Assembly: GCA_016840085.1 (NCBI GenBank)
Contig: JAEOTA010000086.1
Span: 128,001 to 192,000, forward strand
DNA: 64,000 nucleotides
Source: Promethearchaeota archaeon
GTDB taxonomy: Archaea > Asgardarchaeota > Lokiarchaeia > Sigyniarchaeales > SOKP01
Reading direction: 5' to 3'
The notes under the pieces were generated by a model. That model had not been told where the DNA came from, made no database searches, and saw only the letters and a program-made list of their open reading frames with translations. The position numbers and the translations under genes are program-made. Positions 40,453-49,311 of the stretch are shown here, in pieces. Each line of letters opens with the position of its first letter. Position 1 is the first letter of the stretch.

Positions 40453-41037
40453 TTAATCAGTTTTGGATCCACAATATTGACAAAATTTTAATTCTAATGG
40501 ATAATGTTTTCCGCAATTAGGGCATTTTTTTAGTGAATTCTTAAGAATTTCCCTCCCTAACATTTCAAAAGCTTTTTCTACATTTTCACCTGTTTTTGAG
40601 GATGTACCAAGCATATCTCCTTTAAATTTAAACTTTTCAAATATTTCTAAAGCATCTTCTCTTTTCACTTTTCTTTTTAAATCAATTTTAGCTTCAATTA
40701 ATATTTTTGTTTTAGGAGAATTTGGAACAGAAGAGATAACGTTTATCCAATCATAGAGATCATTTAAAGAATCTTTATTTGACACATCGTATAACATTAA
40801 AGCTCCAGACGCACCAGATACATAAGAAGGGAATAAAAGTCGGAATTTCTTTTCTCCAGCAAAATCCCAAATATTTAGAAGTATTTCTGTATCATCAACC
40901 ACTACTTTTTTCGTTTCAAAATCAACACCAATAGTTGATAATGTAGATATTTCGAATTTACCTGTTGCATACCGGCGGATTAAACTTGTCTTGCCTACAT
41001 TTTTAGCTCCAGCAACAACAACTTTAAATTTTATCAT
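40453..41037 (-). CDS. Rab-like small GTPase with C-terminal zinc ribbon
   Basis: GAKNVGKT, TIGVDF, WDFAGE, SSKTGENV, CPNC...CQYC. Confidence 0.93.
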   Translation of the reverse strand: MIKFKVVVAGAKNVGKTSLIRRYATGKFEISTLSTIGVDFETKKVVVDDTEILLNIWDFAGEKKFRLLFPSYVSGASGALMLYDVSNKDSLNDLYDWINVISSVPNSPKTKILIEAKIDLKRKVKREDALEIFEKFKFKGDMLGTSSKTGENVEKAFEMLGREILKNSLKKCPNCGKHYPLELKFCQYCGSKTD

Positions 41038-41122: not shown

Positions 41123-43432
41123 TTATTGATTTGGTTTGTACTTATATCTACTTATTTTATAAATCTCTTGAGCAATTTTTTTACCAATACTCTCAATTTT
41201 AATTAAATCAGGAATGTCTGCTAAAACTAATTTCTGTAAAGTCTTAAATTCATTCAATAAATTTTTAGCTCGAAGATTATTTACACCTGGAATTCCAGCA
41301 ACAATATATTCTAAAAGATGCGAAGTTTCAATAGGTGCTTTATCAAACCGTATAGAAATTTTATTCTTAGATTCGGACTGTTCTTTTTTTGCCAGTTGAT
41401 ATAAAAACATAGCAGTTTCTTCAGAATTCTCCGTTTTATATACACTTATGCCTAAATTTAGAATAATTGTAGTAATCGCTCCATATAGCGCATTTTCGTT
41501 AATAGTAGATTCATTAAATGGATCACCTTCTAAGATTAATATAGAGCTTTCAAACCTATTCTTTAGATCAAATAATTCATTGAATAATCTTCCATCCTTT
41601 ATTGAATCGATAAAGTCTTGAGCCGTCTTTCTTTCAATACCGACTCTATTTGAAAGCACATAATCCGCAATAGGTAATTGCTCTAATTTTAAGGTTACAC
41701 CCATTAATGAAAGTGTTCTAACAACAGACGATGCTGTCTCTCGATTATCACATATAATTTGGTACTTATTAGCGTCATCTATTTTTTGATTTAGCATTAT
41801 CCCACTTTCTTTTGTCACAAAATCTAAAAGATTTGATTGTCCTGATTTCTCTAATTGTTCCGATTGTTTTATCTTTCCTAAACTATCTCTCATATTTCTT
41901 TCTTTAACTTTTTCTGCCCAATAATATCCCTCATCCCTTGTATCTTCTGCCATTAAGATGTAAACTTTTCCCTCTTTTTTACGCCCAGTACGACCTCGGC
42001 GCTGAATTGCTCGTATAGCACTTGGCACCACATCATAAAAAACAACTAGATCACATTCTGCTATATCTAATCCTTCCTCCGCGACACTTGTTCCTATAAG
42101 AGTGTTATATATCCCTTTTTTAAATTCTTCCAGGATTCTAATTTGCTCTTTCTGAGTTAAACCTTTATCAGAACCTTTTTTAGCTTGCCCTACAAATTTG
42201 TGAGCATTTATTATCTCATCTTTCTCAAAATATCTTACAATGTTATTCACTGAGTCTCTAAAATGACAGAAGACTAATATTCTTGAATTTTTATGATCTT
42301 TAAGTTGAGACCTTAGAATTTTTTTTAATTTCTCAAGTTTGGGATGAACTATACCCTTCGATTGGATTTGATATGTTAGCTCTATTACCCGTTTGATATC
42401 ATTATCTAAAAACAATTCTTTCAAAGATTTATTAGCTAAATTATTTTTTACTTTTTCTTCATTTTTCACGATATAATCTTTTAGAGCATTAATTCCTTGA
42501 GTTTCAAGAAGTTCAAGCATATGAGAGATTCGAATAGCATTAGCCTGTAGTTTTTTAGCGTAAAACATCTCAAACTTTTCACTATCATCTCGTAAGAATG
42601 AAATCTTTCTATTAATAACTGTATTAAGCTGTAAAAGATCTTTCCTCGTTACTTTATTCACATCATAGGAATTGAGTAATTCCTTTTCTTTTAACCATTT
42701 ATAAATATTTTTTAGTTTTTCTTCTAAAATTTTTTTAATCTCTATGAATTCATTAGGAAGCTTAATTTTTATCCATTTATTATCCACATCTTGGATATAT
42801 GGTTTAACATCAACATCATTTTCAGTTCTTATTTCTACATGGTTGATAAATAAATTTTGTTTTATTTCGTTAATTTTTTCTTGAGTAGAACCCGGGCTTG
42901 CTGTTAAACCTAAAATCTGAGGAGTTATTGCACTTTCAATATATTTTTTGGCAATAAAACAATAAGCATAATCACCTATGGCTCTATGACACTCATCAAA
43001 AATGATCAAAGAGACATCTTTTATCGAATAATTTTTAGATATAATATCATTTTGTAATACTTGGGGTGTCATAAAAGCCACACGGAGTTTTTCCCATAAT
43101 ATTTTTCTTTTCACCGGTGGCGTGGTACCTGTTATTGATACTAGTTCATCAGGATTAATCTCGGTTAAACTTAAAAAAGAGTTATAATGTTGCTCTACTA
43201 AAGGTTTTGTTGGAGCTAATAAAATGACTTTAGAATCTGGTATATCAGTTAATTTTTGAACTGTTAGCATTAATGCTATAATTGTTTTCCCTAAACCTGT
43301 AGGAATAACCACTAAACAATTTTTATTTAGGCAATTTATAAAAATGTTTTCTTGATATTTCCGTCGAGAAATTAAATTACTCTTAATTAGGGGATGTGAA
43401 ATGAAATCATTTTTTATTGAGACTGAAATCAC
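41123..43432 (-). CDS. hef: Hef/FANCM-like helicase with ERCC4 nuclease
   Basis: PTGLGKT, DECH, TASPG, QRRGRTGR, DNRE...IERK, HhH. Confidence 0.95.
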   Translation of the reverse strand: MISVSIKNDFISHPLIKSNLISRRKYQENIFINCLNKNCLVVIPTGLGKTIIALMLTVQKLTDIPDSKVILLAPTKPLVEQHYNSFLSLTEINPDELVSITGTTPPVKRKILWEKLRVAFMTPQVLQNDIISKNYSIKDVSLIIFDECHRAIGDYAYCFIAKKYIESAITPQILGLTASPGSTQEKINEIKQNLFINHVEIRTENDVDVKPYIQDVDNKWIKIKLPNEFIEIKKILEEKLKNIYKWLKEKELLNSYDVNKVTRKDLLQLNTVINRKISFLRDDSEKFEMFYAKKLQANAIRISHMLELLETQGINALKDYIVKNEEKVKNNLANKSLKELFLDNDIKRVIELTYQIQSKGIVHPKLEKLKKILRSQLKDHKNSRILVFCHFRDSVNNIVRYFEKDEIINAHKFVGQAKKGSDKGLTQKEQIRILEEFKKGIYNTLIGTSVAEEGLDIAECDLVVFYDVVPSAIRAIQRRGRTGRKKEGKVYILMAEDTRDEGYYWAEKVKERNMRDSLGKIKQSEQLEKSGQSNLLDFVTKESGIMLNQKIDDANKYQIICDNRETASSVVRTLSLMGVTLKLEQLPIADYVLSNRVGIERKTAQDFIDSIKDGRLFNELFDLKNRFESSILILEGDPFNESTINENALYGAITTIILNLGISVYKTENSEETAMFLYQLAKKEQSESKNKISIRFDKAPIETSHLLEYIVAGIPGVNNLRAKNLLNEFKTLQKLVLADIPDLIKIESIGKKIAQEIYKISRYKYKPNQ

Positions 43433-43623: not shown

Positions 43624-43727
43624 GCGCGAGTGGTTTAGTGGTTATAACAACACGCTCACACCGTGTATTTCTGTGAAAATTGCTTTATAGATAACGAAGG
43701 TCGGGGGTTCAAATCCCCCCTTGCGCA
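43624..43727 (+). tRNA. tRNA-Val(CAC) with a 31-nt non-canonical intron at the anticodon-stem/variable-loop junction
   Basis: Acceptor GCGCGAG/CTTGCGC; anticodon arm ACACG-CTCACAC-CGTGT; variable loop AGGTC; T arm GGGGG-TTCAAAT-CCCCC; discriminator A; insert 43667-43697 (or 43668-43698) with hairpin TCTGTGAA/TTTATAGA. Confidence 0.92.
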
Positions 43728-43818
43728 TTTTTCAATCTTGTTAAAAATTCTTTACTCTCTATTAATTTTAAATTTAAATTAACCATTTAATTTTAAATAT
43801 CATTACTTAAAACTAAAA

Positions 43819-44673
43819 TTGAAGAAAACCTGCACTAAATGCCAGAGAACCTTGGATTTAACGCATTTTCGGATATCAAAAGGATATAATAGTAATATCT
43901 GTAGAAAATGTGAATTAAAACAAAAAAATATAAGAAATTTTCAGATTAAGTATAAGATTATTAAAAATTATTTTAATGGAAAATGCAGAGATTGTGAAAC
44001 TAATTATTTGAACCTTCCAGCTTTAGAATTTCACCATCCTGATTTGAGCAAAAAAACTACAACATGGAGGAAACTCAAAGGGCAAAGTTATTCAAATATT
44101 CTTAGCAGACTTTTATATGATAAAGTCCAACTTTTATGCAGAAATTGCCATACTTTAGCAGGAGCCACTACATTTAAATTTTATAAGGAAATTATTCTAA
44201 AATATGATTTTCCTTTAAATGATATTAATAAAAACAATATTCTTGATTCAATAAATAATGAGTTACATCAGTTCCATTTAGATGAGAAATTCAATAACAA
44301 AACTAAATATCACATTTTAAAATGGATTAAGAAAAAATCATTAATTGAACTACTCTATAAGGGTAGTTGTGTTGGGTGTGAAAAAACCAATATTGAAAAC
44401 AATCTACCCGCTTTAATTTTTCATCATTTAGATCAGTTTAAAAAAGATAAAATCTCAAGATGGCAAAAAATCTCAAATTTGAGCATACAAGAAATTATAA
44501 ATTTATTAAAAAAAGAAAAATGTGTTTGTCTATGTGCTAATTGTCATAAATTTATTGAATCAATACAATTTTTAGAACAACAAAACTTAATTATAGGTGA
44601 AAGGAATGCTTTAGAAGTGAAAAGAACGTTTAATCTAATTATCTCAAGAATAGAAAATTTTAATATAATTTAG
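43819..44673 (+). CDS. Tandem HNH-like endonuclease with N-terminal zinc finger
   Basis: CTKC...CRKC, then two copies of CxxC...LPALxFHH...LCxNCH. Confidence 0.85.
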   Translation: MKKTCTKCQRTLDLTHFRISKGYNSNICRKCELKQKNIRNFQIKYKIIKNYFNGKCRDCETNYLNLPALEFHHPDLSKKTTTWRKLKGQSYSNILSRLLYDKVQLLCRNCHTLAGATTFKFYKEIILKYDFPLNDINKNNILDSINNELHQFHLDEKFNNKTKYHILKWIKKKSLIELLYKGSCVGCEKTNIENNLPALIFHHLDQFKKDKISRWQKISNLSIQEIINLLKKEKCVCLCANCHKFIESIQFLEQQNLIIGERNALEVKRTFNLIISRIENFNII

Positions 44674-44676
44674 ACA

Positions 44677-44730
44677 GGGGTTCAAAATTCTGAAAATCTA
44701 TTTTGGTGTGAATTGTTCCCTCCTCGCGCA
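44677..44730 (+). pseudogene. Orphan tRNA-Val 3' fragment (T arm plus acceptor strand) with a 30-nt insert in the T loop
   Basis: CTCGCGC-A is perfectly complementary to the tRNA 5' GCGCGAG; GGGG/CCCT T-stem; the insert region has AATTC/GAATT complementarity. Confidence 0.7.
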
Positions 44731-44803
44731 TTTACTTTATTGCCTTTAAAAATCGAAAAAGTTATATGATATTTTGCATTTTTTAAATCTAATTACTGAT
44801 TTT

Positions 44804-48165: not shown

Positions 48166-49311
48166 ATGGCAGAAGAAGAAAGCTTTCTGAATGCAAAAGC
48201 ATTAGTAGTAGACAATGGTACAGGTATCTCAAAAAATGGTTTTGCCGGAGAAGATCAACCTCGTTCTGTCTTTCCCACTCTTATTGGTTATCCTAAATAT
48301 GAATCTATCATGACAGATGTTGAGCATTATACACGGGAATACTATATTGGGGAAGAAGCCATGCAGCTTAAAGGTGTTCTAAAACTCATGTTCCCTGTTG
48401 AACATGGTATTATTGAAGATTGGACTGCCATGGAGAAAATCTGGCACTATACATTCTATACGGATCTAAGAATCGATCCAAGCGAACATCCAGTACTTTT
48501 AACAGAAGCGCCATTAAATCCACGGCCCAACCGTGAAAAAATGGCCGAAATTATGTTTGAGACCTTTAATACTCCTGCTCTTTATGTCGCAATGCAGGCA
48601 GTTTTATCTCTCTATGCTTCTGGTCGTACTACGGGGTGTGTTATAGATATTGGTGATGGAGTATCCCACGTTGTACCAATCTTCGAAGGATTCGCCTTAA
48701 GTCATGCTATTCAGAGAATTGATCTTGCGGGTAGAGACATAACCACTTATTTACAACGATTACTCAGACAAAAAGGATATTCTTTTACAACATCAGCTGA
48801 AAAGCAAATTGTGAGAGATATAAAGGAGAAACTATGCTACGTCGCAATTGATCCCGAGAAAGAGATGATGTTGAGTAAGAAAGTTGCTGGAATGGAAAAA
48901 AGCTACATGCTACCTGATGGTGAAACCATCAATGTTGGTGTAGAAAGATTTTTAGCTCCTGAATGCTTTTTTAATCCATCAGTAATCGGGAAAGAGCTTG
49001 AACCCTTAGATGACGTAATAGTTGGTTCCATTTCCGAGTGTGATGTTGATCTCCGCCGAGATCTTTATAGCAACATCGTTTTATCTGGCGGGAGCACTAT
49101 GTTCCCTGGTATAAAGGAACGGTTAACGAAAGAGATAAAAGAGCAAATCCCGGAGAGCGTCGATGTTAAAATAATTGCTCCACCTGAGCGTATGTATTCA
49201 GTCTGGATCGGTGGATCAATTTTAAGCTCACTTAAAACATTCCATCGTATGTGGGTCACCAGACGAGAATATAAAGAGATGGGTCCCCAAGTTATTCACA
49301 GATGCTTTTAA
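48166..49311 (+). CDS. Actin (lokiactin)
   Basis: [62 protein letters not shown]-terminal HRCF. Confidence 0.98.

Follow-up and report, generated by a model that had tools for sequence, protein, structure and literature searches.

A cassette of about 1 kb lies in the tRNA-Val(CAC) gene of a Promethearchaeota archaeon, between the working end of the gene and what is probably its stranded old end, and relatives of the cassette are placed likewise at about 10 other tRNA genes and several protein genes, sometimes together with short introns. We consider it probable that these are free-standing homing-endonuclease cassettes that replace the end of their target gene. The locus was analyzed within a 64,000-nt stretch of contig JAEOTA010000086.1 (here called the window), which belongs to genome G000, and was compared with relatives in public assemblies.

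Anatomy of the tRNA-Val locus

The working tRNA-Val(CAC) gene occupies 43624..43727 on the forward strand (Rfam RF00005, 58.7 bits), and its exons are nearly invariant across all cassette alleles. It contains a 31-nt hairpin intron at position 44/45 (43668..43698, +), which the initial annotation had missed and whose spliced junction is given by the intron-less relatives L004 and L231; ARAGORN, run on the window without its intron mode, found no tRNA. The intron is followed by a 15-bp core (the G45-A58/59 exon block; 43699..43713, +), which is the first copy of the core and forms the left end of the duplication, and by the remainder of the working 3' end (43714..43727, +), which lacks a T-loop intron and was probably carried in by the cassette. 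Beyond it come an AT-rich spacer (43728..43818, +), common to cassette alleles and missing at empty sites, in which a sigma-70 scan gave no promoter signal beyond chance, and a gene with a TTG start and a TAG stop (43819..44673, +), predicted to encode a 284-aa nuclease with a zinc finger and tandem McrA-like HNH modules. The new 3' end, spacer, and nuclease gene together make up an insert of 973 bp.

The TAG stop overlaps G45, the first exon base past the 44/45 intron, of a stranded and decaying tRNA-Val 3' half (the stump; 44673..44730, +). Three nucleotides (ACA) follow the stop, and then come GGGGTTCAAA at 44677-44686, a 30-nt intron in the T loop at 44687..44716 (+), and TCCCTCCTCGCGCA at 44717-44730, that is, the start of the T arm, the T-loop insert, and the acceptor strand in this order. 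The conserved flanks are hef (helicase-ERCC4; Pfam DEAD, Helicase_C, and ERCC4; 41123..43432, -) on the left and rpoK (Rpb6; Pfam PF01192; 44819..45121, +) on the right. No integrase gene lies between hef and rpoK, and the two PF00589 genes of the genome are located on other contigs. The initial annotation, made from the letters alone, had described a complete tRNA-Val(CAC) followed by one zinc-finger/two-HNH ORF, a second tRNA 3' end with a T-loop insert just past the ORF, and no integrase, and in all of this it was correct. The tRNA-Val 3'-end motif occurs twice in the 4.68-Mb genome, both times at this locus. Because the identical layout recurs in independent Logan and ENA assemblies (L331-L334 and L051), an assembly artefact is ruled out. 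Less than 4 kb from the cassette, the window also encodes a Rab-like GTPase with a C-terminal zinc ribbon (40453-41037) and a highly conserved actin (48166-49311).

The cassette protein

At the N terminus of the 284-aa protein, a CxxC...CxxC finger precedes two CxxC...HH...CxNCH modules that are 36% identical to each other, and the module residues C, C, H, C, N, C, and H are invariant in 91 aligned modules of the family. Searched alone, the window protein matched no family in Pfam and nothing in PADLOC. Pfam HNH was matched weakly by 8 of 11 homologues, and in a profile search McrA was the best sequence relative of solved structure (E 0.003; PDB 6GHC). The structure model (pLDDT 88.8) matched an HNH cluster of the Atlas with a TM of 0.84 over residues 1-118; the whole model yielded no clear match with Foldseek or VIA, and a single-module model had many HNH structures among its weak VIA matches (Z 2.3-3.9). 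The residues and the fold matches supply the catalytic His, the Asn/His metal ligands, and the fold that define HNH (beta-beta-alpha-metal) nucleases, and we therefore take the protein to be an HNH nuclease, with an activity predicted from sequence and model. Comparison of two intact alleles gave a dN/dS of 0.29, with no motif residue altered.

The protein shares the CxxC...HH...CxNCH motif with the HNH domain of EcoKMcrA but differs from it in having two tandem modules behind a separate zinc finger and no recognized modification-reading domain. The McrA relationship, the dN/dS value, and weak matches of two homologues to PADLOC type IV restriction models would all suit a modification-dependent, McrA-like host defence nuclease that merely accumulates beside tRNAs. 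Such a nuclease would nevertheless leave unexplained why clades track target sites, why gene ends are stranded, why working ends are foreign, and why decay recurs (see below), and we regard this explanation as very improbable.

Some family members are much larger, with lengths of 900-1850 aa that are due to long N-terminal extensions of acidic or repetitive sequence (L049, L058, L070, L104, L113, and L114); several of these have a winged-helix-like C-terminal domain, and one has three HNH modules.

Empty sites and allele decay

Alignment of the hef-tRNA-rpoK interval across relatives, as proposed in the initial annotation, revealed empty sites within the genus at which hef, tRNA-Val, and rpoK are contiguous, with tRNA-Val directly beside rpoK. 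Seven empty-site genomes (G018, G004, G013, G101, G094, G081, and G096) carry the allele of the stump, including a T-loop intron homologous to the one stranded in the window, and three further genomes of the genus have the acceptor end of the stump without a T-loop intron. The upstream 3' end was found only in G000 and G024 among the 54 genus genomes searched and is the native tRNA-Val end of genera g21 and g22. It is thus an ordinary allele of other genera and not a recoded end, as had been suggested. A derivation of this end from tRNA-Pro, which has the same T arm, was considered and dropped, since the identical end is native to the tRNA-Val of other genera.

The cassette is intact in G000 and L331-L333, frameshifted in L051, deleted in the 5' part of the ORF in L334, almost fully deleted in G024, and absent from L238, a series that matches a cycle of invasion, decay, and loss. 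What remains in G024 is the upstream end, a piece of about 25 bases from the end of the ORF, and a decayed stump. Allele L333 is the best preserved and carries the identical 15-bp core at both ends. The stump has different mutations in the T arm or acceptor in G000, G024, L051, L333, and L334, and the upstream copy is conserved, which indicates that this copy is in use. The nuclease gene lies outside any intron or intein and is missing at the same site in relatives, as is characteristic of free-standing homing endonucleases.

Archaeal rRNA introns can carry homing endonuclease genes, and the stump begins at the 3' splice junction of the 44/45 intron, so that the ORF might be pictured inside one giant intron, with the downstream end used in the mature tRNA. 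An intron-encoded homing endonuclease would require the ORF to lie within a spliceable intron; here, the distant junction forms no pairing resembling a bulge-helix-bulge, and the stump is mutated in every allele in its T arm or acceptor while the upstream copy stays conserved. We find the giant intron scarcely credible.

Two side observations concern the same interval. In L279, a tRNA-Val with two introns and an upstream-type end falls in the clade of another allele and is possibly a replacement that left no cassette. In one genome (L326:737-1850), tRNA-Val and rpoK are separated by an unrelated gene of about 370 aa.

Distribution and targets of the cassette family

Homologues of the ORF are patchily distributed over 56 of 134 genomes of one Lokiarchaeia family. 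At an E value of 1e-10, they were found in 25 of 68 genomes versus 0 of 232 from other Asgard families, suggesting that the ORF family is restricted to this one Lokiarchaeia family among the sampled genomes. A metagenome scan with the single protein found nothing. Two IMG/VR viral contigs (L194 and L195) encode weak (32%) relatives of the HNH module; the Atlas neighbors are mostly viral, and a viral source of the family is possible.

Of 89 homologue loci, 41 lie at most 400 nt from a tRNA, compared with 20 of 2369 ORFs (0.8%) in the window genome, a background that is somewhat low because the tRNA detector found about 26 tRNAs in that genome. The 41 loci include non-independent kin and reflect about 10 distinct tRNA targets: Val, two Arg, Pro, two Gln, Asn, two Glu, and His. 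About half of the homologue loci adjoin protein genes, named here by sequence motifs only, either at their start or at their end. Clades in the family tree, a quick version of a tree search, track the target sites. The initial annotation had proposed to examine whether homologues sit just downstream of tRNAs with duplicated 3' ends. Many are near tRNAs, but the family is not tRNA specific, and most tRNA-adjacent members lie upstream of the tRNA or tail-to-tail with it rather than following it on its own strand.

At 15 of 76 testable loci (7 at tRNA genes and 8 at protein genes), a diverged copy of the neighbor's end is stranded beyond the ORF, a count that leaves out L067 (possibly tandem ABC paralogues) and L131 (a repeat of the ORF's own end); most tRNA-adjacent homologues have no stump. 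Stranded-end scores of at least 40 were reached at 12 of the 76 loci versus 4 of 200 random ORFs.

The restored tRNA 3' end and the duplicated 15-bp T-arm core of L333 are likenesses to classic tRNA-integrated islands, which have the same geometry, and the cassette could be pictured as what is left of a bigger island whose tyrosine integrase attached it at the T arm, with the HNH gene as residual cargo. The cassette differs from such islands in having no integrase, in its small size, and in belonging to a family that targets unrelated genes and both of their ends. No match to the two integrases of the genome turned up in 521 kb around 92 homologue loci, in a search whose positive control worked; serine recombinases and transposases were looked for by reading the ORFs at 15 loci rather than by profile. 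The span between the two end copies equals the ORF plus 0.1-1.3 kb in every case, and the only larger insert at the Val site in the relatives read is the unrelated gene in L326. Targets at the 5' and 3' ends of unrelated tRNA and protein genes, in both orientations, would be unexpected from a single integrase lineage. We therefore consider an island remnant improbable and retain the free-standing cassette as the preferred reading.

The gap between convergent tRNA-Glu and tRNA-Asn genes contains members of different clades in either orientation (L055, L065, L068, L077, L078, and L129) and looks like a hotspot invaded from both sides. One ABC-transporter gene is flanked at each end by a different family member (L067:2665-8217). 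Upstream of tRNA-Arg(CCT), two separate clades lie head-to-head without a stump in at least 10 genomes (L026, L028-L031, L053, L121, L122, and L124); these copies are possibly old or domesticated.

Direction of exchange

Two protein loci indicate which of the two ends is native. At the Zn-dehydrogenase gene of G075, the stump is 97.9 and 94.8% identical to the empty relatives (gene bodies, 92-93%), and the working N terminus is at most 79% identical to any relative. At lpdA (G023 and G076), the stump is about 91% identical to the empty relatives, and the working end is mostly about 80% identical. By these identities, the stump is native and the working end is foreign at both loci. At tRNA-Pro, genomes G008 and G103, which belong to different genera, share 87% identity in the ORF and 93% in the two-intron tRNA versus 69% in hef, a pattern indicating that one cassette crossed genera together with an intron-bearing tRNA-Pro. 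Horizontal spread with a co-converted flank is thus seen for both the tRNA-Pro and the Zn-dehydrogenase homologues. Extra stranded lpdA 3' fragments are present in G003 (two at C7:91311-94104, where the part read showed no family ORF) and in G012 (one at C59:33069-33264, about 24 kb away), and they suggest repeated invasions.

At the tRNA-Val site, it is likely, although not proven, that the stump is native and the working end incoming; a donor of the Val cassette was not found. The initial annotation had likewise taken the downstream copy for the displaced original, a view supported by the seven empty-site genomes with the intron-bearing downstream end and challenged by L238. It had argued from a G-U pair in the upstream acceptor stem, but this carries no weight, as each allele has one G-U pair (the downstream one in the T stem). 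L238 is a close empty contig, 89-91% identical to the window on both sides, in which the upstream end runs directly into the native flank, the one found behind the stump in other alleles. It is therefore the kind of empty relative, with the upstream end, that the initial annotation had named as contrary evidence, unless it arose by precise excision; the other seven are not of this kind. Its placement received support of 81-86 one way and 57/44 the other, and two of three trees put it with the window inside the cassette clade. L238 appears to be a member of the cassette clade, with an order within it that varies among the trees, and may represent either a clean excision via the repeated ends or a pre-insertion allele. 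In the lpdA relative G085, the foreign end is followed by the flank of the stump, in the same layout as in L238 (the contig ends soon after), and this is what a clean excision would be expected to leave. Because of this parallel, excision seems the likelier reading of L238.

The opposite polarity, in which the working 3' end is native to the host clade and the cassette brought a foreign intron-bearing 3' half, joined via the last shared acceptor bases, would account directly for the upstream end in L238 and is compatible with the commonness of that end in other genera. It fits poorly with the stump intron, which shared changes set apart from the introns of all seven sister-clade genomes, as vertical descent predicts, and with the native stumps at both homologous loci where polarity is testable. 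The clean-excision layout of G085 and the moderately supported position of L238 in the cassette clade also argue against it. We consider this polarity unlikely and continue to favor a native stump.

Two further ideas about this site were not borne out. An exchange of the 44/45 intron by the cassette was not demonstrated, as the empty relatives have an intron at the same position that looks homologous. A mosaic host genome, divided between the hef side and the rpoK side, would have to rest on trees that differ only in weakly placed deep branches.

Proposed mechanism and comparison with known systems

Under the free-standing cassette model, cassette-bearing DNA would enter a cell with an empty allele, and the tandem-HNH protein would cut the T-arm region at a long site that covers the core and is present only in the empty allele. 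Repair would start on the homologous side and copy in the tRNA 3' end of the donor together with the nuclease gene, and rejoining to the recipient at the break would strand the old end behind the ORF. After the swap, neither copy of the 3' end would contain the whole cut site. The ORF would later decay, and recombination between the two ends could delete it cleanly, so that just a swapped end in another intron state would remain. Integration of a small circle by a single crossover would produce the same anatomy as break repair, and the two routes give no distinguishing mark here.

The closest described kind appears to be the gene-hybrid elements with mobile ORFs (mORFs) of fungal mitochondria, followed by SegB of phage T4 and the other seg and mob genes. 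In the part of the literature consulted, mORF gene hybrids are described for atp6 of Allomyces macrogynus (PMC3630166), and in Glomus they are known for atp6, atp9, cox2, and nad3 (PMC3630166). In them, too, a foreign gene end arrives with a nuclease ORF, the native end is displaced behind it, and the displaced end is nearer to empty relatives than the working end is. The same combination of a foreign working end and a native displaced end in a duplicated terminus is found in the cassette family at the Zn-dehydrogenase and lpdA loci and is likely, if challenged by L238, at the Val site. The mORF nucleases, however, are LAGLIDADG or GIY-YIG proteins in mitochondrial DNA, in contrast to the HNH protein of an archaeal chromosome described here, and the cassettes differ further in hitting both tRNA and protein targets, also at 5' ends and in both orientations, and in being tied to short bulge-helix-bulge introns. 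SegB is a GIY-YIG endonuclease that recognizes the T stem-loop of tRNA (PMC2330249, PMC2988022). Like the cassettes, the seg and mob genes are single nuclease genes beside a conserved target gene with a patchy distribution; SegB differs in its nuclease family, in its phage host as opposed to a cellular genome, and in that no stranded duplicate has been reported. The cassette thus works like the mORF elements and the seg/mob genes without being a member of either group, as it has another nuclease family, resides in an archaeal chromosome, and affects both ends of both gene classes.

In collaborative or trans homing, introns are moved by free-standing nucleases, the known cases being group I introns in phages (PMC2988022). 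The working alleles of Zn-dehydrogenase and tRNA-Pro resemble these cases in having an intron at or near the stump edge, but the introns here are archaeal ones of about 30 nt, and the incoming tRNA-Val end lacks the T-loop intron.

Association with short introns

In G075, the end of the stump coincides exactly with the site of a 29-nt mRNA intron in the working Zn-dehydrogenase allele. This intron occurs only in G075 among the 19 genus genomes read and has a similar counterpart in three genomes of another genus, one of them likewise with the cassette; this distribution suggests that another cassette brought the mRNA micro-intron. Overall, a hairpin intron of 29-30 nt is present in Zn-dehydrogenase-like mRNAs at the KRCGI/CGSD zinc motif in four genomes (L098 in G075, and L093, L202, L203, and L205), in two of which an HNH cassette lies just upstream. 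The Val stump begins at the 44/45 splice junction, and the Pro stump of G008 begins near an anticodon-loop intron. The nuclease could cut at intron sites, or introns could merely bound the recombining homology; introns are dense in these tRNAs, and the coincidence with stump edges is compatible with chance.

We tentatively propose that the cassettes act as a hit-and-run vehicle by which Lokiarchaeia gain and lose short bulge-helix-bulge introns: the nuclease would cut at or beside an intron site, the intron state of the donor would protect it and be copied in, and the cassette would later excise without a trace via its duplicated ends. If this possibility is true, it supplies a route of intron movement, which the consulted part of a 2026 preprint lists as open (10.64898/2026.10.13.758758), and it explains the spread of introns between lineages but not their first origin.

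Significance

In a literature search directed largely at freely accessible papers, we found none on such HNH-tRNA cassettes in archaea, and the cassette is not described in the passages covered of papers on the mobile elements and tRNA introns of Asgard archaea. The consulted part of a recent census of Asgard introns judges the mobile-element context from hallmark proteins and makes no mention of HNH or homing, so that cassettes of this kind were probably left uncounted. The family shows an Asgard chromosome hosting a selfish element that has no integrase and alters the termini of essential genes across the boundaries between genera. The stumps point to likely cut sites and so provide predicted targets, testable in vitro, for dozens of related nucleases. 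The cassettes may help to explain the gain and loss of tRNA introns in Lokiarchaeia, and they may make the arrival of Asgard tRNA introns a testable process.
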